DNA of 64,000 nucleotides from Lachnospiraceae bacterium. GTDB taxonomy: Bacteria; Bacillota; Clostridia; Lachnospirales; Lachnospiraceae. A program made the position numbers and the translations under genes. A model generated the notes under the pieces. The model was not told where the DNA came from and did no database searches. It saw only the letters and a list, made by a program, of their open reading frames with translations. The DNA lies in the NCBI GenBank assembly GCA_024692955.1, contig JAILLW010000044.1:7027-71026 (forward strand). Reading direction: 5' to 3'. Below are positions 5,472-24,764 of the stretch, in pieces. The number at the start of each line of letters is the position of its first letter. Positions within the stretch are counted from its first letter, which is position 1.

Positions 5472-5503
5472 AACCTCATCCTCGTATATATGTCAACGCA
5501 CTT

Positions 5504-8248: not shown

Positions 8249-8338
8249 GGACAGAGCAAAAGCCGTCACATGGCCCACAATTATATATCGGCAGATCCGT
8301 CCGGAATGATTACCCGGCCATGTCTTTTTTCGGAGCTC

Positions 8339-8368
8339 AAAAAAGCCCCGGAGAAACACTCTCCGGGG
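8339..8368 (-). terminator. Rho-independent terminator after the GDPD gene
   Basis: Minus-strand RNA reads CCCCGGAG-AGUGUUU-CUCCGGGG followed by CUUUUUUG. It starts 30 nt after the stop at 8398. Confidence 0.75.
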
Positions 8369-8397
8369 TAAATGGTTTTGGGTAAGCTGTTTTTTGA

Positions 8398-9126
8398 TCA
8401 AAGATACATCTCGGGCTCGTTCAGAAAGACATCCGTAATGCCCTTTTCTTCAAGAGCCGCAAGGTCCAGCTTTCCTCCGGTCGGCTTTTCCGGGTATAAA
8501 TGCCCGGTAAGCCATGCCCGGACCGGATATCCTTTAAACTTATCGGGCTCAAAGTCCATGCCCTGCCAGAATGGATGAAGCGCATCCGCGCCGATGCTTT
8601 TTGCCTTATAAAGGCAGTCGGACACTTTTTTATCGAGCATCCCGGTCCCCGCATCGGGTACAAGTTCCTTAATCCTTACTATCGACGCGGCATAAAAACT
8701 CGAATAGACAACCGACTTTTCAAGTCCGTATTCCGATATCAGTTTTACGATCTTCTCCTCCATCCCGGGATAGGGAAAAATACTGTTCTTAAGTTCAATA
8801 TTGAGCAGAAATCCCTTTTTCATCGCATCCGCAAGGAGATCCAGGACCTCTTTCATGGTCGGGATGCGTTCCGCTTCCCTTTTTCCGGTATGGATATGGA
8901 AAGATTTAAGTTCTTCGAGTGTATAATCTCTCACAAATCCGTATCCGTCGGTGGTCCGGTCGATCTTTTCATCATGAATGACGACCAGCTCTTTGTCCTT
9001 CGTCAGCTGAATATCAAGTTCGATCCCCGTAAGGCCCCTTCCAAAAAGCTCCAACGCTTTGGAGAAGGAAGTGATCGTGTTTTCCGGATACCTCTGTGAG
9101 CACCCCCGGTGCGCCCAGATCTTCAT
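8398..9126 (-). CDS. Glycerophosphodiester phosphodiesterase (GDPD/GlpQ/UgpQ family)
   Basis: 242 aa. Reads MKIWAHRGCSQRYPENT...GIELDIQLTKDKELVVIHDEKIDRTTDG, covering the HRG, ENT, E-x-D and HD catalytic motifs. Confidence 0.85.
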   Translation of the reverse strand: MKIWAHRGCSQRYPENTITSFSKALELFGRGLTGIELDIQLTKDKELVVIHDEKIDRTTDGYGFVRDYTLEELKSFHIHTGKREAERIPTMKEVLDLLADAMKKGFLLNIELKNSIFPYPGMEEKIVKLISEYGLEKSVVYSSFYAASIVRIKELVPDAGTGMLDKKVSDCLYKAKSIGADALHPFWQGMDFEPDKFKGYPVRAWLTGHLYPEKPTGGKLDLAALEEKGITDVFLNEPEMYL

Positions 9127-10205
9127 GCTCTTCCACCTGCCTTCAAATGTTTCTCCATAAGATCCGCCATACAGATCGAACGGTCCTTTGCCGCCTTCCG
9201 GTCTTCCTCATCCGGTCCGTCTGTGGCTTCTTCGCAAATCCCCTCGATCTGTCTTTGGAATTCCCCGATCTCGTACCGGAGTCCGTCCCCCTCGAAGGGG
9301 ATGTCGAAGCTCTGCATCTTCGACGGATCCTCGAAGTGGATCTCAAAATGTCTCGTCTTCCACCAGGGGGCGTCCGCCTTAATGAACCCCTTCGTTCCGC
9401 TTATAAGAAGCCGGCCCTCCGCCTTTACGCCGAGTCCGCAGACTGCGGAAGCCATCCTTCCGGGATAATCAAGATCCAGTTTCGTAAAGGTATCGATCCC
9501 GAGCCCGTTCCGGATCGACGAGAAGCGGACGGATTCATATCCGCTTCCGAAAAGATCAAGGATCGGGAGCAGCACATAGCTTCCGAGTTCCGTAAAACTG
9601 CCTCCGTATCCTCTGTCCGTAAGTTCCCGTCTGTCGGGACTTTCCAGCTTTGTAAAGCAGCTTTCGACGAATTTCACCTCACCGATGATCCCGTCCGATA
9701 CCGTCTGAAGCAGTTCCCGGTATCCGGGGCAATAGGCCGTTTTCAGCCCCTCCATCAGTATGAGACCCTTTTCTTCCGCAAACTGAAAGCATTCCGCCGC
9801 CTCTTTCGAAGAAAGGGTCATGGGCTTTTCGCAAAGGACATGCTTTCCCTGCCGAAGAGCCTTAAGGATATATTCATAATGTGTTTCATGGGGTGTCGCG
9901 ATATAGACAGCATCCGTGACGTTCCAGAAATCCTCCGGAATGCACGAAGTCCCCGGATCGACTCCGGATTCCCGGGAGCCTTCTTTCGCCGCGAATGCAT
10001 ATGCTTTCGGGACTGTGGCTTTATTATCCGCTATTCCTTCCGGGAGTTTTCCCGCCGCGGTGTCTCCCCATACCTCCCGCACGAACCGCTCCGCGCTTCC
10101 CGGGTGGGGATTATAGACCGCGGTGATCTCCGCTCCAGGAACGCACATTGCCTCCGGGACAAACCGCTTTGCGATCCTTCCTGTTCCGATGATCCCGATC
10201 TTCAT
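9123..10205 (-). CDS. Gfo/Idh/MocA-family NAD(P) oxidoreductase
   Basis: 360 aa. Motifs KIGIIGTGRIAKRF (Rossmann) and HVLCEKPM. Clear paralogue of the C-terminal part of the upstream fusion protein, with a ~50-aa insert. The two genes overlap by 4 nt. Confidence 0.8.
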   Translation of the reverse strand: MKIGIIGTGRIAKRFVPEAMCVPGAEITAVYNPHPGSAERFVREVWGDTAAGKLPEGIADNKATVPKAYAFAAKEGSRESGVDPGTSCIPEDFWNVTDAVYIATPHETHYEYILKALRQGKHVLCEKPMTLSSKEAAECFQFAEEKGLILMEGLKTAYCPGYRELLQTVSDGIIGEVKFVESCFTKLESPDRRELTDRGYGGSFTELGSYVLLPILDLFGSGYESVRFSSIRNGLGIDTFTKLDLDYPGRMASAVCGLGVKAEGRLLISGTKGFIKADAPWWKTRHFEIHFEDPSKMQSFDIPFEGDGLRYEIGEFQRQIEGICEEATDGPDEEDRKAAKDRSICMADLMEKHLKAGGRA

Positions 10206-11560
10206 GCAAGCGCCGCCTGATATGCCTTTCGTTTTTCCATGAATTTCTCCACCACATCCGCCATTGCGATGGATTCCCCGGCCGTCAGCTTGTAATCATT
10301 TCCGCCGGTCCCGTTTACCTTGGATATGAATTCCGCGATCTCGTACCGGAGACCGTCGTCTCCGAGAAAGCTGGATTCAAAATGATCGATCTTTCCCGGA
10401 TCCTCGTAGCGGACATCGAAGCCTCTCGTAAGCCACCAGGGGGATTTCACGAGGATATATCCCTTCGTCCCCGCGATGATCAGCTCACCTTCCGATTTTA
10501 CGCCCGCTCCCGCTTTCGCGGTGGCAAGTGCGTTCTTATAACGGAACTGAACTTTCGTAAAGGTGTCGATCCCCTTTTTCCCGTATACCGACTCGATGCG
10601 GACGTCCTCATAATCTTTTCCGAGCAGTTTGAAGATCGGGAGCATCCCGTAGCTTCCGTACTCCAGAAAAGCCCCGCTGTACTTTTCGTCCGTCATCTCT
10701 CTCGTGCCCGGAAGGCCGATCCTCGTAAACGTCGCCTCGATATCGCAGATCTCGCCGATGATCCCGCTCCTTGCCACGGAAAGCAGCTGAAGGAATCCGG
10801 GAAGATACGCCGTACGGATCCCCTCCATCAGTGTGACCCTGTTTTCTTTGGCAAGGTCATAGAGTTCCGCCGCTTCGTTATAGGTAAATGTCATCGGCTT
10901 TTCACAGAGCACGTGCTTTCCGGACAGAACGGACTTTCGGACATATTCGCTGTGGGTCTCATTCGGCGACGCCACATAGACGGCATCCACTTCTTCCAGA
11001 AAACTCTCGAAATGATCTGTCCAGGTCTTGATCTGATACTTCTCCTCAAAGGACCGTGCGCTCTCCTCCTCCGGGTTATAGGCATTTACTACCTCAATGC
11101 CGGATACAAAACTGGTCTCCTTCAGAAAACGCGGAGCGATACGCCCCGTACCGATGATGCCGATCCGGACGATCTTCTGCCGCTCATCCCGAAGCAGGCT
11201 CGAAGAGATCCCCGCCGTTCTCGGAAGATATATCACCTCACAGTATTTTTTCAGATAATCATAGCGTCCGGCCCAGTCGCTTCCCAGAGTAAAGACATCG
11301 ATTCCGTAGCGCTGGATGTCCTCCACCTTCTGCCCTTCATGATCCTCCACGATGATCTCATCGGCGAAGCCGGTATTCCAGACATTTTCCATCCGGACCC
11401 GGATCGGATCGACCAGGTTCAGTTTTCCGCGCATCAGATCATAGTGCTCGGTCGTAACCCCGACGATCAGATGATCGCCGAGCTCCTTTGCCCGTTTTAA
11501 AAGCTGGTAATGTCCCTCATGGAAAAGATCGAAGGATCCATACGTGATCACTTTTTTCAT
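10202..11560 (-). CDS. Fusion protein: TagD-like cytidylyltransferase (aa 1-130) plus Gfo/Idh/MocA oxidoreductase (aa ~131-452)
   Basis: N-terminus: YGSFDLFHEGHYQLLKRAKELGDHLIVGV...PRTAGISSSLLR. Then: VRIGIIGTGRIAPRF...HVLCEKPM. Confidence 0.8.
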   Translation of the reverse strand: MKKVITYGSFDLFHEGHYQLLKRAKELGDHLIVGVTTEHYDLMRGKLNLVDPIRVRMENVWNTGFADEIIVEDHEGQKVEDIQRYGIDVFTLGSDWAGRYDYLKKYCEVIYLPRTAGISSSLLRDERQKIVRIGIIGTGRIAPRFLKETSFVSGIEVVNAYNPEEESARSFEEKYQIKTWTDHFESFLEEVDAVYVASPNETHSEYVRKSVLSGKHVLCEKPMTFTYNEAAELYDLAKENRVTLMEGIRTAYLPGFLQLLSVARSGIIGEICDIEATFTRIGLPGTREMTDEKYSGAFLEYGSYGMLPIFKLLGKDYEDVRIESVYGKKGIDTFTKVQFRYKNALATAKAGAGVKSEGELIIAGTKGYILVKSPWWLTRGFDVRYEDPGKIDHFESSFLGDDGLRYEIAEFISKVNGTGGNDYKLTAGESIAMADVVEKFMEKRKAYQAALA

Positions 11561-11566
11561 AAAAAC

Positions 11567-11941
11567 TCAGATCTCCTTCACCCACAGCCCGTGCAGATTG
11601 CAGTATTCATAGGCCGCTACGGCAGCATCGCCGTCAGCAAGGACAAAGACCGCCTCGGGCTTCTCGCCGGGCTTTAAATATTTCGTCTGATAACCCTGCT
11701 TCGTTTCCAGTATGATCCACTGGATGTAATGCGCATCCAGCATGGGATGTTCCACATCCCCGACCTTTACGGACACTTTGTTTCCGTCGATGCTTACGGA
11801 CGGGATGTGCTTTTCATACGCGCCGTCCGAAGTCCCCGGAACGAGCTCCGTCATCGCTTTTCCGCAGCAGAACGCCGGTACGCCCGAATCGTTCAGCTTC
11901 GTAATGATGTTACCGCATGTTTCGCATTTGTAGAATTTCAT
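11567..11941 (-). CDS. dfx: Desulfoferrodoxin (class I superoxide reductase)
   Basis: 124 aa. N-terminal desulforedoxin-like Cys motif (KCETCGN...FCCGKAM). SOR centre II residues present (EKHIP, VEHPM, YCNLHGLW). Confidence 0.85.
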   Translation of the reverse strand: MKFYKCETCGNIITKLNDSGVPAFCCGKAMTELVPGTSDGAYEKHIPSVSIDGNKVSVKVGDVEHPMLDAHYIQWIILETKQGYQTKYLKPGEKPEAVFVLADGDAAVAAYEYCNLHGLWVKEI

Positions 11942-11973
11942 GATACAGCCCTCTCTTTCTTTTGCTTACTGCT

Positions 11974-13317
11974 TTAAACCACTTTTACAGCGCCTTCCTC
12001 CTCCACCGCCCGAAGCGCGGCTCCGATCACCTGATCCATATCGTAATACCGGTATTCTCCGAGGCGGCCGCCGAAGATGATGCGGGGTTTTCCGGGTTTT
12101 TCCCCTTCCCCGGCAGACTCCCCGCAGCTCGCCTCCCGCCGTTCATTCTCTTCCCCGGCAAGGCGCCGGTATTCCTCATACAGCTTCGTATTTCGCTCAT
12201 CATTCACCGGATAATAAGGTTCATCTCCCTTCTTCCACTCCGTGCTGTACTCTTTCGAGATCACGGTATGGGGAATGTCATTTCCCTCATCATCCTTTCC
12301 GAATTCGAACCATTTATGCTCGATGATCCGGGTATAGGGCGTATCTCCGTCCGTATAATTGATCACGGCATTGCCCTGATAGTTTTCAACCGGAAGATCC
12401 TCGGTCTCAAAGGTCACTCTCCGGTATTCCAAAGCACCGAGGGAATATCCGAAATACTCGTCAATGGAACCGGTATAGATCACGCATTTTGTGTTTTCAT
12501 CAAGCCGGCCGCGGTTTTCCGGATCCAGATAGTCCACGCCGAGAACCAGAGTGATACTTCCCGATCCGACTGAGACTTTTGTTCCCGTTCTCCCGGTTCC
12601 GGGGAGCGCCTCTGCGTGTCCGCCTTTCTTTTCCGGAATGCCCTCATCTCCCGGCGCCTTTTTCGGGTTTTCCCCCCTTATTCCGAGGATCCTTTCCACC
12701 ATCTTCGTATATCCCCCCATCGGGATCCCCTGATAGCGGGCATTGAAATAATTATTGTCATAGGTGAGCCTCACGGGAAGGCGGCGGATGATGGAAGGAG
12801 GAAGCTCCGTACAGGGCCGTCCCCACTGCTTTTCCGTATAATGCTTAATAAGTTTTTCGTAAATATCCGTGCCCACCAGACTGATGGCCTGCTCCTCGAG
12901 GTTTCGGGGTTCATATGTGTCCGCGGCACCGTCCCTTAAAGTCGCCAGTGCGCTTTTTCTCTGCTCCGCAATCTTTTTCTTTGCATCTTCCGGAGTCACC
13001 GCGCCCCACATCTTATTGAAGGTATACATGTTAAAAGGCAGGGAATACATCTCGCCTTTATAATTTGCCACAGGCGAATTCGTATAACGGTTAAACTCCG
13101 CAAAGCGGTTCACATATTCCCAGACCTTCCGGTCGTTCGTATGGAAAATGTGGGCGCCGTACTTATGTACCCGGATCCCGCCTTTTTCTTCCGTATAAGC
13201 ATTACCGGCGATATGGTTCCGCCGGTCGATCACAAGGATACTCCTTCCCTTTTCGGCAAGCTCCCGCGCCATTACGGCACCGTAGAGTCCCGCACCCACG
13301 ATCAGATAATCATACAT
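11974..13317 (-). CDS. glf: UDP-galactopyranose mutase carrying two low-complexity insertions
   Basis: 447 aa. Reads MYDYLIVGAGLYGAV...HKYGAHIFHTND...YTEKQWG...GALEYR...EPYYPVND...FGGRLGEYRYYDM. This is collinear with my recollection of E. coli Glf except at roughly aa 212-254 and aa 388-412. Confidence 0.85.
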   Translation of the reverse strand: MYDYLIVGAGLYGAVMARELAEKGRSILVIDRRNHIAGNAYTEEKGGIRVHKYGAHIFHTNDRKVWEYVNRFAEFNRYTNSPVANYKGEMYSLPFNMYTFNKMWGAVTPEDAKKKIAEQRKSALATLRDGAADTYEPRNLEEQAISLVGTDIYEKLIKHYTEKQWGRPCTELPPSIIRRLPVRLTYDNNYFNARYQGIPMGGYTKMVERILGIRGENPKKAPGDEGIPEKKGGHAEALPGTGRTGTKVSVGSGSITLVLGVDYLDPENRGRLDENTKCVIYTGSIDEYFGYSLGALEYRRVTFETEDLPVENYQGNAVINYTDGDTPYTRIIEHKWFEFGKDDEGNDIPHTVISKEYSTEWKKGDEPYYPVNDERNTKLYEEYRRLAGEENERREASCGESAGEGEKPGKPRIIFGGRLGEYRYYDMDQVIGAALRAVEEEGAVKVV

Positions 13318-14351: not shown

Positions 14352-15224
14352 TCAGTTCGCGCTCACGCGCGCTCCCTTCGGTACCGATTCCGTAATAAAG
14401 GCACTTCCGCCGATCACGGCGCCTTCGCCGATCACGGTCTGTCCGCCGAGGATCGACGCATTGGAATAGATCGTCACATTGTCCTCTATGGTCGGATGGC
14501 GTCGTACGTTCTTCAGCTTCTGCCCGCCCTTGGTGGAAAGCGCCCCCAGAGTCACGCCCTGATAAACCTTCACATGATCTCCGATCACGGTGGTCTCGCC
14601 GACCACGATGCCGGTTCCGTGGTCCATAAAGAAGTAACGTCCGATGGTTGCTCCCGGATGGATATCAATCCCGGTCAGGGAATGGGCATGCTCGGTCATG
14701 ATCCTGGGGATCATCGGAACCTTAAGCATAAAGAGTTCATGTGCCAGCCGGTATACGGATACGGCATAAAAGCCGGGGTAGGAAAGAATGATCTCCGCCC
14801 GTGAGCTGGCCGCCGGATCTCCCTCAAAAAACGCTTCCACATCATATTCGAGCATCTCCCGGATCATCGGGATCTTCTCCATAAAGTCAAGGGAAAGTTT
14901 CTCCACAAATCCATCGAACTGTTCCTCGGAATAGAAGACATAATCGCTGCTGTACTGAAGGACGGTCCTGATCTGCTTGTTCAGATGATAGATCACATCC
15001 TCGATGGCGGCGGCCATATTGTTCTTCAGGCTGTAGATCTTGTAGACCCTGTCGGAATAGTAGCCGGGAAACAGGATCTTCATCAGCTTGTCCACGATCC
15101 CGATGATCGCCTGTTTATCCGGCTGATTCTGAATATCCAGCCTGTTGATCACCCGTTCGGAAGTATAATCCTCCAGGATCGACTGCACGATCCCCTCAAT
15201 ACGTTCTTCATCCGCTCTGGCCAT
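14352..15224 (-). CDS. cysE: Serine O-acetyltransferase (long, ~290-aa form)
   Basis: Reads GIDIHPGATIGRYFFMDHGTGIVVGETTVIGDHVKVYQGVTLG...RRHPTIEDNVTIYSNASILGG, the CysE-type hexapeptide core. It has an extended N-terminal helical domain. Confidence 0.7.
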   Translation of the reverse strand: MARADEERIEGIVQSILEDYTSERVINRLDIQNQPDKQAIIGIVDKLMKILFPGYYSDRVYKIYSLKNNMAAAIEDVIYHLNKQIRTVLQYSSDYVFYSEEQFDGFVEKLSLDFMEKIPMIREMLEYDVEAFFEGDPAASSRAEIILSYPGFYAVSVYRLAHELFMLKVPMIPRIMTEHAHSLTGIDIHPGATIGRYFFMDHGTGIVVGETTVIGDHVKVYQGVTLGALSTKGGQKLKNVRRHPTIEDNVTIYSNASILGGQTVIGEGAVIGGSAFITESVPKGARVSAN

Positions 15225-15324: not shown

Positions 15325-15353
15325 GGGCGCCGGAGGATTCACCCCCGGCGCCC
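15325..15353 (-). terminator. GC-rich hairpin (GGGCGCCGG / CCGGCGCCC) downstream of the 15403 stop; possible terminator without a clear U-tract
   Basis: 9-bp perfect stem with an 11-nt loop, read directly. The flank on the minus strand is not U-rich. Confidence 0.35.
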
Positions 15354-15402: not shown

Positions 15403-16242
15403 TCAGCCTCTGAAATCAATGTTCCCGCCGATGGCTTTTTCTTCCTCGGTCATCACGCTGTCCGCCCGCCTGTCGAATTCATAGGCTTCGATCTTTTTGA
15501 GCAGCTCGTCCACGGAAGATGCGGAAAGGATCACGTCCCCCTCATTGAGGGTGATCCCGGTCTCATCCCAGTCCGGCTGTGCCGCCTCGGCGCCCTGTGC
15601 CTTTTCTTCCGCCTTTTCTGCCGCCTTTTCTTCGGCTTTCTTTGCCGCTTCCTTCTTTTCCGCGGCTTTTTCGGCCTCCTTCTTCTCGGCTGCCTTCTTC
15701 TCGATCCTTGCCTTCTGGGCCTTCGAAGAATCCTTCAGTACCGCGAAGAACGAAGCGGTCCCTCCGTCATTGACCTGCATCCCGTAGCCCTTGACGTTGG
15801 AGTTGTTCGCCGTCTGTGTCTTCAGCCGGGAAAGTCCGCTCTTTGCCTGGGAGATGATCCCTTCATACTGATTCCGGAAGCTTTCATCCTCCGCCATCTT
15901 CTCGATCTTGTCCTCGTCGATGAGGACCACCATCCGGTTCGGATTCGCGAAAGTCCCCGCCTGCTGTTTCGCGGCTTCTTTCATGTCCCTGCTCACGAGT
16001 ACGAAATCCATGTCGCCGAATTTCTTCTTCAGATCTTCGTAATAGGCGGCCGCTTTTTCGGAAAGTTCCGGTTTGCCGATGGTCTTCCCGTAATTTCCCG
16101 TGCTCTTTGCTGTTTTCGTTTCGGAAACTGCCGATGCGGCTCCTGATGCCCCTGATTCTTCGGGCTTCTTTGCGGCCAATGCGTTGTTCGTGTAGGCTGC
16201 GCTGTTCGCATATGCCGCGGTTGCTTGACTGATCAGACTCAT
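15403..16242 (-). CDS. Uncharacterised Lys/Ala/Glu-rich protein under flagellar-type control signals
   Basis: ORF 15403..16248. I prefer the ATG at 16242 because it sits 8 nt after GGAGG, whereas the ATG at 16248 sits 2 nt after it. No TM helix or signal peptide. The N-terminus is Ala/Ser/Asn-rich, with an (A/E/K)n repeat at about aa 175-215. I recognise no family. Confidence 0.7.
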   Translation of the reverse strand: MSLISQATAAYANSAAYTNNALAAKKPEESGASGAASAVSETKTAKSTGNYGKTIGKPELSEKAAAYYEDLKKKFGDMDFVLVSRDMKEAAKQQAGTFANPNRMVVLIDEDKIEKMAEDESFRNQYEGIISQAKSGLSRLKTQTANNSNVKGYGMQVNDGGTASFFAVLKDSSKAQKARIEKKAAEKKEAEKAAEKKEAAKKAEEKAAEKAEEKAQGAEAAQPDWDETGITLNEGDVILSASSVDELLKKIEAYEFDRRADSVMTEEEKAIGGNIDFRG

Positions 16243-16248
16243 ATTCAT

Positions 16249-16299
16249 CGCCTCCTTGCTTTTCCTCCCGCGTCCGGGAGACTTCGAAACATCCTTGTT
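16249..16299 (-). promoter_or_regulatory. Two candidate CsrA-binding sites in the leader: AACAAGGAUGUU hairpin (16288-16299) and GCAAGGAGGCG over the SD (16249-16259)
   Basis: Read directly. The first site matches the CsrA SELEX consensus RUACARGGAUGU at 11 of 12 positions, and AACA/UGUU can pair to present AGGA in a loop. The second site contains the Shine-Dalgarno sequence. Confidence 0.5.
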
Positions 16300-16331
16300 T
16301 CTGTATACCCACAGGTAGTCCTACGGAGTAT

Positions 16332-16358
16332 ATATCGGCATCGTTTTATGATTTCTTA
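16332..16358 (-). promoter_or_regulatory. Sigma-D/sigma-28-type promoter TAAG-N15-GCCGATAT
   Basis: The minus strand reads TTAAGAAATCATAAAACGATGCCGATAT. The -10 is identical to the B. subtilis sigma-D consensus GCCGATAT. About 90 nt upstream of the ATG at 16242. Confidence 0.55.
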
Positions 16359-16370
16359 ACCTTCTTTATC

Positions 16371-16446
16371 AAAAAAACGAAAAAAATTCATCACAGTGGA
16401 AAAACCCGCGAAAAAACTGAAAAAAAGTTGAAAAAACCACGAAAAA
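16371..16446. repeat. Array of phased A-tracts (A5-A7, starts near 16371, 16380, 16400, 16411, 16420, 16431, 16442) in the divergent flagellar intergenic region
   Basis: Read directly: aaaaaaacgaaaaaaattcatcacagtggaaaaacccgcgaaaaaactgaaaaaaagttgaaaaaaccacgaaaaagg. The last five tracts are spaced 9-11 bp apart. Confidence 0.7.
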
Positions 16447-16480: not shown

Positions 16481-16613
16481 CCCTAACTAACTAGGCTCAT
16501 TTTGCCCCATGCGTCGGTCGGACCGCATAAAAGCGGGATCAGAAACGATCAGGCCGGCCGCGGAAACGGATTTTCCGCGGAATGCATGTATCAAGGAAGA
16601 AAGGAGGGGCTCT

Positions 16614-17927
16614 ATGGCAGCATATAATTCTAAAGTAGACACGATCTACAATCATTATCTGACATCGTATGCACCGAAGGGTGCGGTATCCAAGTACGAT
16701 TCTCACAAAAAAGACGAGCTTCGGGGCGTATATCGCTCTATGCTTAAACTGAACAAAGACGCGCCCCTCTATATCCTGGATTCCAGTAAAGAATCCAGGA
16801 GCTTCGTGGTTAATCTGAAAGAAAACGCGCGGAGTCTGAGGAATACCATCGCCGAACTCGGCGGTGTCGATGATGACCGCATGTTCAGCAAGAAATCGGC
16901 CTATTCCACCGATGAGAATATGGTCTCCGCTTCCTTCATCGGAGAGATCGAAGACGGAGACAGCGCTCCCACCTATGATCTGGAAGTAAGAAAACTCGCT
17001 TCCAATCAGGAGAATCTGGGACACGCCTTAAGATCCGACGACAAAGCGGCCCTTCAGCCGGGCACCTATTCCTTTGATATCGGGATCAATGATGTCAGTT
17101 ACGAATTCCAGTTCAACATCCGTGAAGATGATACGAACCGGGATATTCAGGAGCGGCTGGCACGTCTGGTATCCAAGGCGGATATCGGGATCCATGCCGA
17201 TGTGCTCGACGGCGAGAACGGACGGTCCGCTCTCCGCTTATCCTCCGCGGAATCCGGTCTGAAAAAGGGCGGCGAACTGATCTTCACCATATCCGAGGAT
17301 CGTTCCTCGATGGCTTCCGGTACCGTGGAGTATCTCGGTCTCAATTATGTATCGAAAACGCCTTCCAACGCGGAATTCCTCCTGAACGGAGAAGAGCGCA
17401 GCGCGTCCTCGAACCACTTTACCATCGACAGTACCTATGAAGTGACCCTGAACAATCCGGCCCCGGCCGGTGGCAGAAGCGCCAGGATCGGTGTCAAGAC
17501 GGATCTCGATTCCATTACGGAAAACGTGGGGAATCTGCTCGGAAAATACAATCAGTTCATCCGTGCCGCCGCGGAATACCGCGAAGCACATCCGATGAGC
17601 ACGAAGCTCATGAACGATATGGACCGGATGGTCTCCTATTATTCCGAGAACTTCAAAAATCTCGGTATCAGCGCCGAAAAGGACGGTACCTTAAGTCTGG
17701 ATGAGCGGGGATTCAAATCCGCACTGGCCGGTGATGAGGATTTCTCCTCCTTGAAATCGGTCAAGGGCTTTGCTTCCTCCATCCTTAACAAATCCAATCA
17801 GATCTCTTTGAACCCCATGGAATATGTGGACAAAAAGATCGCTGCTTATAAAAACCCCGGGCACAATTTCGTGGCCCCTTACGCGAGCAGCACCTACGCC
17901 GGTATGTTCTTTAACGGCTACGGCTAG
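16614..17927 (+). CDS. Divergent FliD-like protein (putative flagellar filament cap / HAP2); only plus-strand gene
   Basis: The ATG at 16614 is preceded by AAAGGAGG. The central region reads TYDLEVRKLASNQENLG...YSFDIGINDVSYEFQFNIREDDTNRDIQERLARLVSKADIGIHADVLDGENGRSALRLSSAESG. This follows the FliD pattern (V-x-x-LA, single-sample series, DTL-x-D-I-x-x-IN, GV-x-A, L-x-L-t-S). The termini are atypical. Confidence 0.45.
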   Translation: MAAYNSKVDTIYNHYLTSYAPKGAVSKYDSHKKDELRGVYRSMLKLNKDAPLYILDSSKESRSFVVNLKENARSLRNTIAELGGVDDDRMFSKKSAYSTDENMVSASFIGEIEDGDSAPTYDLEVRKLASNQENLGHALRSDDKAALQPGTYSFDIGINDVSYEFQFNIREDDTNRDIQERLARLVSKADIGIHADVLDGENGRSALRLSSAESGLKKGGELIFTISEDRSSMASGTVEYLGLNYVSKTPSNAEFLLNGEERSASSNHFTIDSTYEVTLNNPAPAGGRSARIGVKTDLDSITENVGNLLGKYNQFIRAAAEYREAHPMSTKLMNDMDRMVSYYSENFKNLGISAEKDGTLSLDERGFKSALAGDEDFSSLKSVKGFASSILNKSNQISLNPMEYVDKKIAAYKNPGHNFVAPYASSTYAGMFFNGYG

Positions 17928-18261
17928 GATCCGCCTGATACTTTTCGAGCATCGCGTAATCATCCATCAGTTCAAGGATCTTCCTTCGCCCGTCTTTGTT
18001 AAGGCGGGCGAAGCTGCTTATCAGTTTTCTTTCATAAAGCTTCCGATTCGCTCCGGAAAGCTCCTCGATCCCCGAAAAATCCGCCGGCGAGAGATTCAGT
18101 CTCTCGCACATCCGAAGGACCGTTCCGTAGGCCATCCCCTCGATCCCGCGGTCGAGTGCGGTCACAAGCGTACTGTAGGGAATGCCCGTTTCGTTGCAGA
18201 AAGCCCGTATGCTTTTGTACTGCTCAAGGATCGCGTCCTTTAAGATCTCGGATTTCGTCAT
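17911..18261 (-). CDS. XRE-family helix-turn-helix transcriptional regulator
   Basis: 116 aa. Reads SIRAFCNETGIPYSTLVTALDRGIEGMAYGTVLRMCERLNLSPADF, an HTH_XRE pattern. It starts 22 nt after csrA, and its 3' end overlaps the convergent FliD-like gene by 17 nt. Confidence 0.65.
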   Translation of the reverse strand: MTKSEILKDAILEQYKSIRAFCNETGIPYSTLVTALDRGIEGMAYGTVLRMCERLNLSPADFSGIEELSGANRKLYERKLISSFARLNKDGRRKILELMDDYAMLEKYQADPSRSR

Positions 18262-18283: not shown

Positions 18284-18505
18284 CTACTTCAGAAGATCCT
18301 TCAGTGCTTCCATACCCTGCGTATCCGCATTGGCTGCCTGGTTCGCTTCCTGGATCTGAACATATACCTCTTTACGGTATACGGGTACCTCCTTGGGTGC
18401 CGTGATGCCGAGCTTTACCTGCTCGCCCTTGATCTCCAGAACGGTGACTTCGATATTGTTGTTGAGTATCAGTGCTTCATTCTTTTTTCTCGATAATGCC
18501 AGCAT
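18284..18505 (-). CDS. csrA: Carbon storage regulator CsrA
   Basis: Reads MLALSRKKNEALILNNNIEVTVLEIKGEQVKLGITAPKEVPVYRKEVY, the canonical CsrA sequence. I chose the start at the MLxLSRK Met; the ORF track begins 4 codons earlier. Confidence 0.9.
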   Translation of the reverse strand: MLALSRKKNEALILNNNIEVTVLEIKGEQVKLGITAPKEVPVYRKEVYVQIQEANQAANADTQGMEALKDLLK

Positions 18506-18506: not shown

Positions 18507-18962
18507 TTACTCACCACCCTTCTTCGCTTTCAGGATCTCATAGATCGGGAACCTTACCTGAAGGCTGTTATCTTCGATGATCACCTGGGCGGCCTTTTTG
18601 GTCAGCGCATTGATGATAATGGGACCTCTTAAGTTTACGGTCATTTTGGTCAGATCGGACGGTACCGTTACCGTTACCATGACCAGTGTCTCTTCCGGAT
18701 TCAATTCGCCGAGAGGCTTTAAGATCTCATCATCCACCTCGGGATTGTAGTCTTCCTTCACGGTCAGAGGATCCATAACCGGCATCGCAAACGCCGGCTC
18801 CTGCATGGACTGCAGCCAGTGAATGCCTCCGACGCCCTTGTCCGCGTCATGGAGGAGGGCAAAATCCGTCAGATCCGGGAATCCGATGATACCGGACGGG
18901 AATTTGATGATCTTGTCATCCTCAATCGTAATTTCTCCGAAATTTTTCGTTGTAACAGTCAT
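18507..18962 (-). CDS. fliW: Flagellar assembly factor FliW
   Basis: Reads MTVTTKNFGEITIEDDKIIKFPSGIIGFPDLTDFALL...WLQS...FAMPVMDP...NLRGPIIIN. The ATG at 18962 is preceded by AAGGAGAG. The upstream ORF extension is unlikely to be translated. Confidence 0.85.
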   Translation of the reverse strand: MTVTTKNFGEITIEDDKIIKFPSGIIGFPDLTDFALLHDADKGVGGIHWLQSMQEPAFAMPVMDPLTVKEDYNPEVDDEILKPLGELNPEETLVMVTVTVPSDLTKMTVNLRGPIIINALTKKAAQVIIEDNSLQVRFPIYEILKAKKGGE

Positions 18963-19138: not shown

Positions 19139-20806
19139 TTAGATGTAGTTCATTAACGTCGTCTGCATGATCTTGCTGGTTGCCATCAGGGAGGACTCAT
19201 AGGTCAGCTCCGCGGATTTCAGTTCGATGGCCACCTCGGCTATGTCCACACCTTCGTTCTTGTCCTGAAGTTCACGGAAGGAGGTCTTCTGCTCCACCAG
19301 ACGGTTCTTGATGAGAGCCAGTCTGGATGACCTCGTACCGTTATCCGTCACCGCCACATTGACATCCGCCTGATACTCCTGGGTCTTGGAGATCATATGC
19401 TCAAAGGCGGTGTGAATGTTCTCGCGGATATAATCGTAAGCCTTGTTGGCAGCGTCCATCTGCTTCACCGTGTCCGCGTAATCCGCATCGGACTCTTCCA
19501 TATCCCGGAGGGCATCCTTAAGATCCGTCCGGATCGCGTAGATGTCCTTCATCTTTGTCATAATGTTCTGAAGATCGTCCAGGTCCCTCTTAAGGTCGTG
19601 GGGGAAGATCTCCTGAGCCGTGGAATTTACTTCGATGATCTGATTGTATCCCACGTCATAGCTGATGGTCTGGCGCTTTATTCCTATCTCGGCATCCGTG
19701 TATTCGCTGTTGTAGTCAATGGTATTTTCCGTTCCGGAGGCATCCTTCGCCGTGGCGGAACACTTGAAATAATGCTCCGGGCGGAGATCTCCGTTATTCC
19801 AGTGATCCTTCGTATAGGTCACGCGGATCTCCATATTCTCCTCGCCGACACCCGGAGTCCCGGCGATCGGCGGATCCACCGTATCATCGCCTTCCGTCCC
19901 CTGGGCAGCGGCCTGATAGGTATCATTGAGGGTTTTGAAGGCTCCGTCCGAAAAGAGGATCTCTCCCGTTTCCGGAACATAGATCACCAGGTTTCCTCCC
20001 GGGTTGGAATCCAGGATCTGCTTATAGGGATCATTCCCGAGGGATACCGCAGTGGCCGTTACGGAATGCAGAGCCGGATCCGAATACGTAAGCGGCGATC
20101 CGCTCTTCGAATAGAGCTCGACCTTCAGTGTCTGGCCGTCCTTGATATCGTCATAGGCAAGCCGGAGCCGCTTGATGTCACCGTTTTCGATCTTCTGTTC
20201 CGTGGTGTCATGGGTACCGTCGGTATAGTTGTTGGGATTCAGCCCCTCGAGCTTGTCGATATAGGTATAATTCATGGTATCGAAGGCATCGATCTTCGTC
20301 TGCTCCGTGATCTCGTAGCTCGGGAAATTATCATCCTCCGTCATCTTCGATACATCCGCCGTGGTAAAAGTCATGGGCGTATCGGTCCGGTATCCCGTAA
20401 AGAGATACCGCCCGGCATAATCGGAGTTTCCGGTGGAATAGAACTCATCCATATAGGACTTTACCTGAGTAAGGATGATGTCCAGTTCGTTCGGAGTAAG
20501 GTCCTTGTTCGCCGCCTTGTTGGATTCCTTCATCATATCGGTCAGGATATCGTTCATCACGGCCAGACCGTCGGAGGTCACCTTCAGCCAGTTGTCCGCG
20601 TCCGCGGCGTTCTTATCATTATACTGGGTAAGTTCGGAAACGCTGCTCCGAAGACGCAGAGCCCTGATCGCCACCACCGGATCATCCGACGGACGGGTCA
20701 GTTTTTTCTGAGTTGACATCTGGGTGCTGAGTTTATCCTGAAGGACCTTGTTCTGGTTAATGTTATACAGAGAATTATTCTGCATGATCTTATTGGTCAT
20801 ACGCAT
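19139..20806 (-). CDS. flgL: Flagellar hook-associated protein 3 FlgL
   Basis: Reads MRMTNKIMQNNSLYNINQNKVLQDKLSTQMSTQKKLTRPSDDPVVAIRAL, with a C-terminal flagellin-like helix DIAEVAIELKSAELTYESSLMATSKIMQTTLMNYI. The track ORF starts at a GTG 3 codons upstream. Confidence 0.85.
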   Translation of the reverse strand: MRMTNKIMQNNSLYNINQNKVLQDKLSTQMSTQKKLTRPSDDPVVAIRALRLRSSVSELTQYNDKNAADADNWLKVTSDGLAVMNDILTDMMKESNKAANKDLTPNELDIILTQVKSYMDEFYSTGNSDYAGRYLFTGYRTDTPMTFTTADVSKMTEDDNFPSYEITEQTKIDAFDTMNYTYIDKLEGLNPNNYTDGTHDTTEQKIENGDIKRLRLAYDDIKDGQTLKVELYSKSGSPLTYSDPALHSVTATAVSLGNDPYKQILDSNPGGNLVIYVPETGEILFSDGAFKTLNDTYQAAAQGTEGDDTVDPPIAGTPGVGEENMEIRVTYTKDHWNNGDLRPEHYFKCSATAKDASGTENTIDYNSEYTDAEIGIKRQTISYDVGYNQIIEVNSTAQEIFPHDLKRDLDDLQNIMTKMKDIYAIRTDLKDALRDMEESDADYADTVKQMDAANKAYDYIRENIHTAFEHMISKTQEYQADVNVAVTDNGTRSSRLALIKNRLVEQKTSFRELQDKNEGVDIAEVAIELKSAELTYESSLMATSKIMQTTLMNYI

Positions 20807-21027: not shown

Positions 21028-22956
21028 TCAGACGCCCGTATTCAGGATCAGCTGGTCATAGATCTCCGTGAGAGTCTGGATCATCTTGGAAGCCAGCGTG
21101 TAATTATTCTGGTATTTCACGAGACTCACAGCCTCTTCGTCCTCATCCACGCCGGAGATGGAAGTCCTCTGGTTGTCGATGGAATTCTTCAGCCCTTCGT
21201 AGGTGGTCTTATAGACATCCGCGTTGGATTTGTTGAGGGCCACATCCGAGATCAGGATCTCCAGCATCTGGTTCGCGGGAGCGTTCCGGAAACTGAACTT
21301 GCTCTTCGTGGTCAGGGTGTCGATGACTTCCTTGATCTGCTCACACTCTTCCACACCCACATGCGGGTTGGACCGGGAGCCGAGAAGATCCGCGTCGTTA
21401 AGGAGGGCATCCGTTACGCTGACGGTTCCGGCAGTCATATAATAGTATCCGTACTTATCCGTCTCCAGCTCCTTATAGCTCACTTCCTCGCCGATCTTCC
21501 GGCAGGCGAACAGGTTCGTTCCGGGGTCTCCGTAGGCGTTGGTAGCCACTACCGGTGCTCCGTCGACGGCCTTTCCGGTGGAAGGATCCTGCCCGGCCGT
21601 CAGAATGCCGTTGATCTTGTCCGTGAAGGAGCGGAGGAACGCGCTCATCTGGGTCATATAATAAGGGATACCCTGATAAGCCAGCGCTTCCTGGGTCTTG
21701 ACCTGATCGTTCACCGTGATCTCTCTCGAGGAGCCCTTCTCCGGATCCAGGGTGAATTTGTAGGCTTCCACGACTCTCTGGCCGTTTTCGTCAAGCACAT
21801 AATCCGAACCGTCCATCTCATAGACCGGCTCCCACTCATCATAGTAATATACCGCATTGCCGATGGTGATCTCGCCCTGGGAGGGAAGGTTGCAGTCAAT
21901 GAGCGCCTTCAGATAATCATCGCTCACGCCCACCGTGACCGTCTGCTTCGTCACGGCGTCCGCTCCGTCACCTACGGTAACACTTCCTTTCTCCCTGACC
22001 TTTCCGTTGAAGTTCTGGCCGTTGTTTCCGTCCCGAAGATCCACGAGGCCGCGGAGCTTTCCGTTCAGGGCGGCATTGTTCAGATTAAACTCGTTTCCGT
22101 TGCCCCACTTGATCTTGTAAAGGCCGTCCACGTCGGTCTGGTTCAGACCTTCGTCATTCGCCCTTGCCACGCAGGAGAGCTCATCATAATCGTTTCCGTC
22201 AACCAGGAGCTGTCCGCCCGCGATCTTGACCACATAGCGGGTTCCGCCGGTCTCTCTCGTCGGATCGTTCGTATCGTAGATCGGGGTCTCCCGGATCTCC
22301 ACGTCCACATATTCGGAAAGGCGGTCGATCAGAAGATCCCGCTGGTCCCGGAGGTCGTTGGCGATCCCGCCGGAAAGCTCGATGACGTTGATCTGCTTGC
22401 TCAGGGTAGCCACCTGCGAGGAAATGGAATTGATCTGGTCCACGCACTGCTTGATCTCGAGGTTGATATCCTTCTGGACCTCCTGAAGATTGCCGTACAT
22501 GCTGTTGAAATAATCGGTGAGAGCCTGCACGGAGGCAACGAAATTCGCCTTCGTGGAGGTCGTGCTGGCGTCCTTCGTAACCTCCTGAAGGGCATCCCGC
22601 ATCTTATTGAAGATCGTTACGAAACCGCTGGTTCCGTCATCATTGAAATAATCCTCGATCTCACGGTCGTAATAGTCCTTGATATTGTACTGACCGTAAT
22701 TTGCGTGGTTATCCCAGAATTTCACGTCATAAAAGCTGTCGCGCACACGCTCGATGGAAAGGGTCTCGACTCCGGCGCCGGCGCAGCCGTAGGTCGCGAA
22801 TACACGAAGGGCGTCCGCCGCCTGGGAATCCACTTTCTGGCGGGAATACCCGTCGGTCTGCACGTTCGAGATGTTGTTTGCCGTCGTATTCAGGGCCGCA
22901 TTCGCGTTCCGAAGTCCGCTGCCCGCTATGGATAATCCGAAAAACTGTGAAGGCAT
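21028..22956 (-). CDS. flgK: Flagellar hook-associated protein 1 FlgK (paralogue 2)
   Basis: 642 aa. N-terminus FGLSIAGSGLRNANAALNTTANNISNVQTDGYSRQ. C-terminus ISGVDEDEEAVSLVKYQNNYTLASKMIQTLTEIYDQLI. Confidence 0.85.
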   Translation of the reverse strand: MPSQFFGLSIAGSGLRNANAALNTTANNISNVQTDGYSRQKVDSQAADALRVFATYGCAGAGVETLSIERVRDSFYDVKFWDNHANYGQYNIKDYYDREIEDYFNDDGTSGFVTIFNKMRDALQEVTKDASTTSTKANFVASVQALTDYFNSMYGNLQEVQKDINLEIKQCVDQINSISSQVATLSKQINVIELSGGIANDLRDQRDLLIDRLSEYVDVEIRETPIYDTNDPTRETGGTRYVVKIAGGQLLVDGNDYDELSCVARANDEGLNQTDVDGLYKIKWGNGNEFNLNNAALNGKLRGLVDLRDGNNGQNFNGKVREKGSVTVGDGADAVTKQTVTVGVSDDYLKALIDCNLPSQGEITIGNAVYYYDEWEPVYEMDGSDYVLDENGQRVVEAYKFTLDPEKGSSREITVNDQVKTQEALAYQGIPYYMTQMSAFLRSFTDKINGILTAGQDPSTGKAVDGAPVVATNAYGDPGTNLFACRKIGEEVSYKELETDKYGYYYMTAGTVSVTDALLNDADLLGSRSNPHVGVEECEQIKEVIDTLTTKSKFSFRNAPANQMLEILISDVALNKSNADVYKTTYEGLKNSIDNQRTSISGVDEDEEAVSLVKYQNNYTLASKMIQTLTEIYDQLILNTGV

Positions 22957-22967: not shown

Positions 22968-24764
22968 TTATCTTCCGAGGGTGGTGAGGATGTGCTCGAT
23001 CATCTCGTTAATGGCATTTACATATCTGCTGGATGCGTTAAACGCGTTCTGGAACTGGATCATGTTCGAAAGCTCCTCATCCGAGGATACTCCGAGGATC
23101 TCCTCCCGGGCGCTTCGGATATTGGTCACCGTAATGGTCTGGTTCGCGGAGATCCCGCGCATCACATAGCCGGTATTGGACACCTGGGAGATCAGGTTAT
23201 TGTAATAGTTCGTAAGGTTCGTCGTGGTCCGTACATCCGGATTCAGGGTATAGATCTCGCTTGCGAAAACGGACTTTAAGGCATCGCCTATGAACTCGTG
23301 ATCCGCCTTGCCGTCCGGACGGATGAAGCCCAGCAACGAGGGGGCCTTTCTCAGAGTCTCGTTGATCTTCACATTCGTTGTCGTAAAGCCCGGGCCGTCT
23401 GCCGAATCGTCCGTCATATTGAACATGGTATAAGGCTTTCCCGTGGCGGGGTCCACCAGATAGCCGTCGGCGTCAAAGGAAGGCTCGTTTCCGCCGCCGT
23501 CCAGCCATTTCCCGGTATCGGGATCCTTCGTATAGGTCGCGGAACCGTCTTTGCTCCTTATCTGATAGGTTCCGTCGGGAAGATCTTCCTTTATGCAGCC
23601 GTTTCCGAAAAGGGCCGCCTCGTAGAGGACGCTGTTGATCCCCGTGGTCACCTGATTCACAAGCTTGTCGAATTCGGCCATAACATTCATCACGACGGAA
23701 TCCTTGATCTTCGCATAGGCCTTCGCATCCAGCGCATCCTTCTCGGCCTGTGTCGCTCCCGGAGGATAATCCGAAGGATCCGCCTTCATATCCGCGAAGG
23801 TCGTCCGCCTGTCACCTCTTGCGAGCAGAAGCCCCTTCAGGGAACCGATATCCGTATTCATGTCGCTGGAGATCTCGCGGTCCATATTGAAGACACGCCC
23901 GATGATGTTTCCGTTGGCATCCGCCGTCGGATTACCGTCCGCGTCGTATTTTGCCAGCATCTTCCAGTAGGGCGTGTAGAAACCGGTCACGGGATCGGTA
24001 TAGATCTCCAGTTCCTTGACGCTTCCCACGTTCACGAAATCAACGCCTTCGATCTGGATCAGATAATTGCCGTCTACGTCCGTATCGAGCGTGATGTTCG
24101 CGATCTCGGAAAGCTCGTCAACCAGACGGTTTCTCTCATCGTTAAGGTCATTCGCGTGCTCGACCTCGCCGGCCTCGATCTTCAGGATCGCCTGGTTCAC
24201 CTCGTCGATGCGCCTTCCGATCTCGTTGATGCGGTCCGTCTTCTGTTTTACGTCGAAATTCAGATCGTCCTGATAGGTCGCCAGATCATCATAGACCAGC
24301 CGGGAACGGTTGATGAACTCGTTGCAGCGCTGTACCAGAACGCCCTGGTTTACCGTATTGGAAGGATCCTTCGCGATCTCCTCCACGGATTCCCAGATGT
24401 TCTTCAGCGTATCTGCGAACGCTTCCCCGTCCAGCTCCTGAAAGATCTCCTCCACCTCTTCGATGGCATCGCAGGAGATATTGTAGAAACCTTCCCTGCC
24501 GTGCTCCCGGCGGTAGGATTTGTCCAAAAAATAATCCCGAACCTGCGCCACCTCGGCGAATTTCACGCCGAGCCCCACCTGCTGATAAGCATTGGCGGAC
24601 GCCGATTTCGAGATCGTATTGTAAAACCGGGTCGACTGCCTTACCTGCTGACGTGTGTAGCCTTCGGTGTCCACGTTCGTCATATTGTGCGCCACGGTGT
24701 TCAGCGCGTTCTGTGATGTCTGTAAGCCGCTGGCTCCTACATAAAGGCTGCCGAAAATACCCAT
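22968..24764 (-). CDS. flgK: Flagellar hook-associated protein 1 FlgK (paralogue 1)
   Basis: 598 aa. N-terminus LYVGASGLQTSQNALNTVAHNMTNVDTEGYTRQ. C-terminus GVSSDEELSNMIQFQNAFNASSRYVNAINEMIEHIL. Confidence 0.85.
   Translation of the reverse strand: MGIFGSLYVGASGLQTSQNALNTVAHNMTNVDTEGYTRQQVRQSTRFYNTISKSASANAYQQVGLGVKFAEVAQVRDYFLDKSYRREHGREGFYNISCDAIEEVEEIFQELDGEAFADTLKNIWESVEEIAKDPSNTVNQGVLVQRCNEFINRSRLVYDDLATYQDDLNFDVKQKTDRINEIGRRIDEVNQAILKIEAGEVEHANDLNDERNRLVDELSEIANITLDTDVDGNYLIQIEGVDFVNVGSVKELEIYTDPVTGFYTPYWKMLAKYDADGNPTADANGNIIGRVFNMDREISSDMNTDIGSLKGLLLARGDRRTTFADMKADPSDYPPGATQAEKDALDAKAYAKIKDSVVMNVMAEFDKLVNQVTTGINSVLYEAALFGNGCIKEDLPDGTYQIRSKDGSATYTKDPDTGKWLDGGGNEPSFDADGYLVDPATGKPYTMFNMTDDSADGPGFTTTNVKINETLRKAPSLLGFIRPDGKADHEFIGDALKSVFASEIYTLNPDVRTTTNLTNYYNNLISQVSNTGYVMRGISANQTITVTNIRSAREEILGVSSDEELSNMIQFQNAFNASSRYVNAINEMIEHILTTLGR

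Follow-up and report, generated by a model that had tools for sequence, protein, structure and literature searches.

Among described systems, the one closest to the locus reported here is the flagellin gene hag of Bacillus subtilis, which has a sigma-D-type promoter, an upstream GGA site, a further site overlapping the Shine-Dalgarno sequence (SD), and fliW and csrA encoded together; its leader and the Hag-FliW-CsrA partner switch are taken here as far as PMC8523840 and PMC6529632 cite the original studies (Yakhnin 2007, Mukherjee 2011). Flagellin is the sole documented target of the FliW-CsrA checkpoint in the Firmicutes literature that we found. We analyzed a stretch of 64 000 nt from a gut or rumen Lachnospiraceae bacterium (GenBank assembly GCA_024692955.1, contig JAILLW010000044.1, positions 7027 to 71 026 of the forward strand; hereafter the window), in which a gene of the DUF6033 family carries the same set of features. 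It differs from hag in that its product is not a flagellin, the Flagellin_N and Flagellin_C domains being absent in a Pfam scan, and in that in most genomes it is not downstream of csrA. Because FliW probably does not bind DUF6033, the protein would be a passenger and not a sensor of the flagellin checkpoint. With a rough probability of 0.7, we conclude that this is a stand-alone, probably monocistronic gene of the late class of the motility regulon, predicted to be transcribed by sigma-D and gated by CsrA and FliW, for a soluble protein.

Two other systems are instructive. The fliC leader of Clostridioides difficile, which like the window organism belongs to the class Clostridia, has the predicted CsrA sites BS1 TGACAAGGATGT and BS2 CTAAGGAGGG (PMC8523840). 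These are almost identical to AAACAAGGATGT and GCAAGGAGGCG in the window, the sites being predicted in both organisms, but the fliC target is flagellin whereas DUF6033 is a family of unknown function. In Campylobacter jejuni, CsrA was found by co-immunoprecipitation to bind, in addition to flagellin, many class 2/3 flagellar mRNAs (among them flaG, flaB, flgI, flgM and the uncharacterised Cj0040), and its sites are ANGGA loops and SD-overlapping sites (PMC4894983). These findings offer a precedent for the kind of multi-gene flagellar CsrA regulon suggested below for flgL, a FliD-like gene, DUF6033 and flagellin, although C. jejuni belongs to another phylum, has another sigma-factor hierarchy and has no DUF6033 homologue in its genus. 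The regulatory architecture is already known, and its link to DUF6033 and to a wider set of Lachnospiraceae genes appears undescribed in the literature that we searched.

Promoter and leader of the DUF6033 gene

A preliminary description of the window, made from its letters alone, had placed a sigma-D promoter, a CsrA-type hairpin site and an SD upstream of an ATG at 16242, and every element was found at its claimed place. The features are listed below in the direction of transcription, with hairpin loops in square brackets.

16371-16446, directly ahead of the -35: seven A5-7 tracts, which read as T-tracts on the minus strand, 9-11.5 nt apart and helically phased
16359-16355, minus strand: -35 TTAAG, with one mismatch (TAAG against the consensus TAAA)
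16339-16332, minus strand: -10 GCCGATAT, identical to the sigma-D/sigma-28 consensus, with a 15-nt spacer from the -35
16301-16286, minus strand: hairpin 1, GAAACA[AGGA]UGUUUC, upstream CsrA-type site with its GGA at 16294-16292
16280-16265, minus strand: hairpin 2, CUCCCG[GACG]CGGGAG, with a GGA at 16275-16273 spanning stem and loop
16259-16249, minus strand: SD GCAAGGAGGCG and overlapping CsrA-type site, with its GGA at 16255-16253
15403-16242, minus strand: coding sequence of the DUF6033 protein, 279 aa, with ATG 16242 and TGA 15405-15403
15325-15353, minus strand: 12-bp GC-rich hairpin 50 nt past the DUF6033 stop, terminator-like, no U-tract

The promoter TTAAG-N15-GCCGATAT is the best match in the window to the sigma-D/sigma-28 pattern (TAAA, a 15-nt spacer and GCCGATAT), and the same -35 is used by the promoter of the flgM operon in the window (TTAAG-N15-TCCGATAA). 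A promoter scan detected no sigma-70-like promoter on the minus strand of the DUF6033 intergenic region. Nowhere else in the 64 kb are A/T-tracts clustered as densely as in the A-tract array (7 in 100 nt), which separates the DUF6033 gene from the divergent FliD-like gene and may act as an UP element or as curved DNA shared by both divergent promoters. Since the downstream serine acetyltransferase-like gene (14352-15224) has its own sigma-70-like promoter at 15295-15266, the DUF6033 gene looks, and in the window probably is, monocistronic.

Within hairpin 1, the segment AAACAAGGAUGU (16300-16289, minus strand) matches the CsrA consensus RUACARGGAUGU, derived by systematic evolution of ligands by exponential enrichment (SELEX), at 11 of 12 positions. 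This match and the pairing of its flanks around an exposed AGGA had both been proposed before, and were borne out by our scan and by the minimum free energy (MFE) and centroid folds, in which hairpin 1 presents an AGGA tetraloop on a 6-bp stem. Hairpin 2 is likewise present in both folds, and the SD is left unpaired. The GGA of hairpin 1 is 39 nt and that of hairpin 2 is 20 nt from the SD GGA. Hairpin 2 is a possible third CsrA contact specific to this lineage; in a 77%-identical relative (L162), AAAGGAUUU precedes GCAAGGAGG by about 20 nt and there is no second hairpin, so hairpin 2 would be a recent insertion in the window. The AAGGAGG core of GCAAGGAGGCG lies 8 nt ahead of ATG 16242, which we take as the true start because the alternative in-frame ATG at 16248 sits merely 2 nt from the SD and orthologues begin with MS.I. 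Rfam has no family for the DUF6033 leader, and its sole match in the 14-27 kb region is a Clostridiales-1 RNA elsewhere.

No single motif is statistically significant within the window alone. There are 7 copies of GCCGATAT where 3.2 are expected, one full promoter pattern with at most one mismatch (0.67 expected), and two copies of the SELEX-like 12-mer (0.5 expected), the second of which is in the flgL leader. The weight of the case therefore rests on conservation across species.

Conservation among DUF6033 and flagellin leaders

Start codons were assigned across 80 orthologous loci, and 79 leaders, 78 from different species plus that of the window, were compared with 474 control leaders of other genes in the same loci. 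The -10 was scored as [C/T]CGATA within 180 nt of the ATG and the hairpin, loosely, as a GGA in a loop on a stem of at least 4 bp between -75 and -20.

[C/T]CGATA -10: 59/79 DUF6033 leaders (75%), 10% of controls
GGA-loop hairpin: 62/79 DUF6033 leaders (78%), 23% of controls
CA[A/G]GGAGG at the SD: 58/79 DUF6033 leaders (73%), 4.6% of controls
-10, GGA hairpin and strong SD together: 51/79 DUF6033 leaders (65%), 12/474 controls (2.5%)

The preliminary description had staked its proposal beforehand on conservation of the motifs in orthologous leaders, and the last of these comparisons (51/79 against 12/474) shows them conserved. A strong SD was present in 77 of the 79 leaders and in 43% of the control genes. 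The logo of 59 leaders anchored on the -10 read T-(T/A)-A-A-(A/G)-N15-tGCCGATATA with fixed spacing, which agrees with the flgM-operon promoter of the window and with the Butyrivibrio fibrisolvens sigma-28 consensus TAAA(N16-17)MCGATAa, as quoted in PMC3720852; nothing beyond that paper was found in the literature on Lachnospiraceae sigma-28 promoters. The orthologous proteins are about 50% identical and the intergenic sequence is otherwise unalignable, and still the motifs are kept.

The typical orthologous hairpin is gAAA[NGGA]UUUc with variable outer pairs. An NGGA tetraloop was found in 38 of the 62 hairpins, with A-U closing pairs like those of the SELEX consensus. The GGA in the loop does not vary, and the stem around it shows covariation. 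In a MAFFT alignment of 48 leaders, 80% of stem cells were paired compared with 54% in shuffles, double-sided changes affected 121 cells compared with 39, and the covariation score was 0.63 compared with 0.17, falling to about 0.1 when the partner was slid along the alignment. The same stem was picked independently by RNAalifold. The distance from hairpin GGA to SD GGA is fixed, with a median of 26 nt and an interquartile range of 22-29, while that from the hairpin to the -10 varies widely; PMC4894983 quotes 18 nt as the optimal intersite distance for a CsrA dimer and gives 21 nt as the distance in C. jejuni flaA.

We then compared these leaders with those of flagellin genes by means of a covariance model (R1) built from 41 orthologous DUF6033 leaders, the window being left out. 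In 1.12 Mb of DUF6033 loci, the top R1 matches outside DUF6033 genes were the leaders of two flagellin genes located 3-7 kb from the DUF6033 gene in one locus (L020), with 43.4 and 39.7 bits, and all other such matches scored 27.7 bits or less. Each of these flagellin leaders runs GGUGCAA[ACGGA]UUUGCACC, short spacer, CCAAGGAGG and AUG, and that of the DUF6033 gene in the same genome runs UGUGGAA[ACGGA]UUUCCACA, short spacer, CCAAGGAGG and AUG, with ACGGAUUU-loop hairpins and the CCAAGGAGG SD in common. Among 80 flagellin loci fetched independently from metagenomes, 75 had at least 60 nt of upstream sequence; in 71 of these 75 the R1 match ended exactly at the flagellin start codon, and 54 scored at least 24 bits. 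R1 scores flagellin leaders like true DUF6033 leaders, and by this measure the DUF6033 leader module is indistinguishable from the flagellin leaders of related bacteria. When R1 was run on the window with filters off, the best match was the FliD-like leader (16559-16605, 18.2 bits, E = 0.006), followed by the DUF6033 leader (14.9 bits, E = 0.045). Over the 1.1 Mb of loci and the 64-kb window, the module is nearly restricted to DUF6033, flagellin, FliD-like and flgL leaders. The best match belonging to neither flagellin nor DUF6033 (L064:2402-2950, minus strand, 27.7 bits) precedes the gene of a 182-aa K/E-rich protein without a family, which may be a further member of the regulatory class.

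With the elements present and conserved, the stem covarying, the leader matching those of flagellin genes, and fliW and csrA at hand, the regulatory reading, namely transcription by sigma-D and translation gated by CsrA and FliW, is well supported by comparison; dependence on the sigma factor, CsrA binding, relief by FliW and timing are its predictions. A flagellar sigma factor of the SigD/FliA type would transcribe from TTAAG-N15-GCCGATAT, possibly boosted by the phased A-tracts as an UP-like element, to give a transcript with a leader of about 80 nt. A CsrA dimer would bridge the AGGA tetraloop of hairpin 1, and possibly also the GGA that hairpin 2 offers, with the GGA inside the SD, and the ribosome would be blocked. 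Export of flagellin would then free FliW to sequester CsrA, translation of DUF6033 would begin, and its production would be coordinated with that of flagellin, FlgL and the FliD-like protein. The scheme follows the Hag-FliW-CsrA logic of B. subtilis summarised in PMC8523840 and PMC6529632 and would extend it to a small late regulon.

Several points weigh against this regulatory reading. Each of its steps is a prediction, from transcription by sigma-D and the place where the transcript starts to binding by CsrA and the effect of FliW. No clear hairpin was seen in 17 of the 79 leaders and no -10 within 180 nt in 20, the 48 leaders used for covariation had been selected for a visible hairpin, and the counts are not independent events because the loci are related. 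In the window itself, hairpin 1 is farther from the SD (39 nt) than is typical, and the R1 score of the DUF6033 leader is modest (14.9 bits) and was obtained through hairpin 2, which the model aligns in place of hairpin 1 to the position of the orthologous hairpin. Most of the sampled metagenome flagellin genes lack the CCGATA -10 and have another conserved upstream motif instead, GGGCCCG, a spacer and CCGGT(T/C)A(C/T)TATA(A/G)A, about 60-110 nt before the ATG (L082-L161); the same GGGCCCG...TATA(A/G)A motif occurs in L020 at about 800-830 and 3920-3950, and CCGATAT was found just in L128 and L131. This motif may serve another sigma factor as its promoter or may be an operator, and the promoter half of flagellin-style control may therefore not extend to every flagellin. 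For most C. jejuni targets other than flaA, moreover, translation was unchanged in a csrA mutant (PMC4894983), so CsrA binding sites need not mean regulation.

The elements themselves could also be read in other ways. The hairpin might be a generic stem-loop that stabilises the mRNA or enhances translation, and the GGA in the SD might simply belong to a strong ribosome-binding site, given that AAGGAGG is the canonical Firmicute SD, that 43% of controls have a strong SD, and that 23% of control leaders hold some GGA-loop hairpin under the loose definition. We regard this as improbable, because the stem covaries around a loop GGA that never changes, the NGGA tetraloop is closed by A-U pairs like the SELEX consensus, the hairpin keeps a set distance to the SD (median 26 nt) instead of standing at the 5' end, hardly any leaders other than those of DUF6033, flagellin, FliD-like and flgL genes carry the module, and csrA and fliW are present. 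A chance combination of motifs in one intergenic region would fit the lack of significance of any motif within the window alone, but dozens of species keep the motifs even though their proteins share only about 50% identity and the rest of the intergenic sequence cannot be aligned, and we count this explanation as refuted.

Flagellar neighbours and gene context

The following features of the window belong to the context of the DUF6033 gene.

16558-16609, plus strand: FliD-like leader, CCGCGGAAA[CGGAU]UUUCCGCGG, spacer, CAAGGA, spacer, SD AAAGGAGGGG (AGGAGG) and AUG, assigned by sequence and fold
16614-17927, plus strand: FliD-like gene, 437 aa, weak FliD_N and FliD_C matches, with its start at ATG 16614 and not 16509
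18284-18505, minus strand: csrA (PF02599, 1.6e-24; above the NCBIfam csrA cut-off)
18507-18962, minus strand: fliW (PF02623, 6.7e-39)
19139-20806, minus strand: flgL (TIGR02550, 142.6 bits against a cut-off of 127.2)
20941-20914, minus strand: flgL promoter, TAAA-N16-TCCGATAT, sigma-D-type
20890-20879, minus strand: flgL leader hairpin GACA[AGGA]UGUC, near-perfect CsrA consensus
20866-20857, minus strand: flgL leader hairpin GCA[AGGA]UGC, near-perfect CsrA consensus

The fliW and csrA genes, which had been noted before as lying close by, were both confirmed, fliW by Pfam and csrA by Pfam and NCBIfam; the CsrA sequence keeps its conserved core, and the two are presumed to be the trans-acting regulators of the DUF6033 leader. 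The flgL gene also has its own terminator upstream and is not simply co-transcribed with flgK, and its two hairpins suggest that FlgL is likewise CsrA-gated in this organism. Judging from the hairpins and GGA sites that their leaders share, at least three late genes (DUF6033, FliD-like and flgL) carry the module in the window organism. A promoter for the FliD-like gene was not assigned confidently, as the candidate TTAAT/ACGATAA has a short spacer and no sigma-70 site emerged from the scan. The absence of a flagellin gene from the 64 kb held up as well, with tblastn searches using two flagellins matching just the FlgL N-terminus.

Proximity to fliW and csrA, which the preliminary description had used as evidence, did not survive comparison with relatives: fliW, csrA, flgK, flgL and flgN were found within 8 kb of DUF6033 in 0/80 orthologous loci. 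Conserved synteny with flagellar genes was also sought by tblastn of the FliD-like, CsrA, FliW, FlgL, FlgK and FlgN proteins of the window against the 80 loci, which returned nothing, and the exceptions to this picture are flagellin genes in L020 and L026. The neighbourhoods of DUF6033 are heterogeneous, and the gene is not tied to any one position within flagellar operons.

Among the families encoded by the gene upstream of DUF6033, FliD_C is the most frequent. A gene with this domain adjoins DUF6033 in 9 of the 80 fetched loci, in the contig of one close relative and in the window (about 11 in all). The products concerned include proteins of about 221 aa (MRITTQMLNETAKRTGIP...YDFWG) with a FliD_C match over some 70 residues and no NCBIfam family. 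Their gene is upstream of DUF6033 in seven loci (L032, at 7202-7867, L033, L040, L042, L049, L066 and L075), where it has its own TTAAG...GCCGATAT promoter and GGA hairpin or sites and the DUF6033 gene, which lacks a promoter, lies 66-157 nt further downstream, so that the two appear from their layout to form an operon; it is downstream of DUF6033 in L045 and L062. A 75%-identical relative keeps the divergent pair, with a weakly FliD_C-like gene of 437 aa beside DUF6033. In the 68%-identical L081, DUF6033 is the second gene, after a 401-aa gene that has a TTAAG-N15-ACCGATAC promoter and a hairpin with an ACGGAC loop, and the 45-nt spacer ahead of DUF6033 contains UUCAA[ACGGA]UUUGAA and then GCAAGGAGG. 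The 401-aa protein was considered as a counterpart of the FliD-like protein and rejected, being unrelated to it and without a Pfam family. The promoterless DUF6033 genes follow a gene with TTAAG-N-(G/A)CCGATA(T/C) and GGA sites.

Other observations were made around these genes. A full-length Clostridiales-1 RNA (RF01699; 19012-19139, minus strand; 92 bits against a gathering threshold of 48, E = 5.8e-20) occupies the flgL-fliW spacer directly upstream of fliW-csrA, and its 3' end runs into GCGC[GGA]GCGC-GGAAAGGAG, just ahead of the fliW ATG at 18962. This motif was described as a likely RNA, not cis-regulatory, of function not known (Weinberg 2010, PMC2864571). Two flgK genes that are not identical follow one another (21028-22956 and 22968-24764, minus strand) and both score above the TIGR02492 cut-off, a tandem arrangement reported for Roseburia and Eubacterium genomes (PMC3720852). 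Right downstream of csrA and convergent with the FliD-like gene, a 116-aa open reading frame (17911-18261, minus strand) has no Pfam or NCBIfam match, and its N-terminal half looks by eye like a helix-turn-helix. Adjoining the flagellar region is a run of sugar- and polyol-phosphate-modification genes (384-13317, minus strand), whose translations look by eye like a radical-SAM enzyme, a PdxA-like dehydrogenase, cytidylyltransferases, LicD, a large CDP-glycerol-transferase-like protein, a glycerophosphodiesterase and UDP-galactopyranose mutase. Part of this set (Glf and a cytidylyltransferase-oxidoreductase) is syntenic in L081, and the run could be an island for flagellin glycosylation or for a cell-wall polymer.

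The DUF6033 protein and its possible role

The preliminary description called the protein uncharacterised. That is correct as to function, in that a full-text literature search for 'DUF6033' found no paper and the PF19498 entry gives no function; the protein is nevertheless not unclassified, since it gives a full-length match to DUF6033 (PF19498; 255.6 bits against a cut-off of 25, E = 4.9e-76) over residues 58-279 and profile positions 1-205 of 205, and it is identical to an NCBI entry named 'DUF6033 family protein [Lachnospiraceae bacterium]'. No other Pfam family matched at E <= 0.01, an NCBIfam scan gave 0 matches, and neither scan detected similarity to axial-protein families or FlgM. The earlier account of its composition stood, as hydropathy and composition showed no transmembrane segment (peak 19-residue hydropathy 0.71), no signal peptide, an N-terminus rich in Ala, Ser, Thr and Asn, and a K/A/E-rich linker at residues 173-216.

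The protein consists of a disordered N-terminus (1-44), an alpha/beta core (about 50-175), the linker (173-216) and a small C-terminal domain (236-279). The full-length AlphaFold model is mediocre, with a predicted local distance difference test score (pLDDT) of 63.5 and disorder at residues 1-44 and 203-232; the pLDDT of residues 1-44 is below 50, family members differ from one another in the sequence and length of this part, and such disorder is not specific to export signals. A model of the core only (residues 50-175, 138 sequences) is confident, with a pLDDT of 83.4 and a predicted template modelling score (pTM) of 0.75. The profile and structure searches that had been proposed as a check on the protein recovered the DUF6033 family, gave no structural neighbour, and turned up no informative fusions. 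Foldseek with the full-length model returned nothing from the PDB below E = 1, and the best PDB match to the core model had E = 0.27 with template modelling scores of at most 0.3. A PDB sequence profile as a source of function was rejected, its matches being just low-complexity K/E-rich segments such as the RPN8 tail, and so were domain fusions in longer family members, where a single case with HTH_3 and a Zn-ribbon is probably a gene-call artefact.

A profile search of 1.8 billion representatives gave 965 DUF6033 matches at the 50% identity level, the best 150 of which are all plain DUF6033 proteins, and there are at least 2876 homologues in 90% clusters and at least 424 confirmed relatives in GTDB contigs with one genome per species. 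The best 80 loci are nearly all labelled Lachnospiraceae, with Butyrivibrio, Roseburia, Lachnospira, 'Eubacterium' and Acetatifactor, which are genera known for motility. A few bins labelled Bacteroides, Odoribacter, Alistipes or Muribaculum are probably mis-binned, and DUF6033 is a Lachnospiraceae family.

Of the preliminary proposal that flagellin-style control acts on a flagellar or exported protein, the regulatory architecture proved to be conserved, while a structural or export role is conjecture, with no homology to axial proteins. Under the same regulation, DUF6033 could be a substrate of the flagellar type-III export apparatus, secreted or associated with the filament or cap. The protein has neither signal peptide nor transmembrane segment, and residues 1-44 are disordered and variable; FlgL and the FliD-like protein, whose genes bear the same leader module in the window, belong to families of late export substrates, in other genomes the gene with this module is flagellin, and FliD_C-domain genes adjoin DUF6033 in 9/80 loci, one relative and the window. 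Set against this, DUF6033 is the sole Pfam match with no axial similarity, the terminal heptad-like helices of axial proteins are absent from a model that is a globular alpha/beta core with a charged linker, a disordered N-terminus is not specific to export substrates, and no chaperone gene is linked. We hold export to be less likely than not.

The same regulation could instead serve a cytoplasmic late accessory factor that is not exported, such as a factor for assembly or quality control, a regulator, or a protein that works with the FliD_C-like proteins, and this we hold slightly likelier than export, though still less likely than not. Sigma-D regulons contain many non-structural genes, in B. 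subtilis autolysins, chemoreceptors and genes of unknown function. The compact and confident core (pLDDT 83, pTM 0.75) and the variable neighbourhoods without a set position in flagellar operons also fit such a factor, but there is no homology to FliS, FliT, FlgN, FlaG or FlgM-type proteins and no match to an enzyme-like or DNA-binding fold. Its expression signals look very strong (a consensus -10, A-tracts and a near-perfect SD), which fits an abundant product better than a regulator. The regulatory class, the disordered N-terminus and the adjacency to FliD_C genes are equally compatible with an exported protein and with a cytoplasmic accessory factor. DUF6033 is a probable late motility component, most likely one that assists flagellum assembly at the stage of the filament or cap, and an exported or flagellum-associated function may be part of this. 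A more specific picture, in which DUF6033 is an abundant Lachnospiraceae-specific flagellar protein, exported through the flagellar type-III apparatus or attached to the filament or cap, that works with the atypical FliD_C-like proteins, and in which one FliW-CsrA checkpoint governs a regulon of several genes (flagellin, FlgL, FliD-like and DUF6033), is possible, with the odds against it.

The flagella of Lachnospiraceae are a major source of immune stimulation by the gut microbiota (PMC3720852), and their assembly and regulation have been inferred almost entirely from Bacillus. If the regulatory reading is true, a function-less family found in at least 424 species-level genomes and represented by 965 cluster representatives would gain a testable role, and the FliW-CsrA checkpoint in Clostridia would gate several late genes beyond flagellin. 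The covariance model of hairpin and SD would also offer a simple way to map CsrA-gated genes in bacteria that are uncultured or hard to manipulate.

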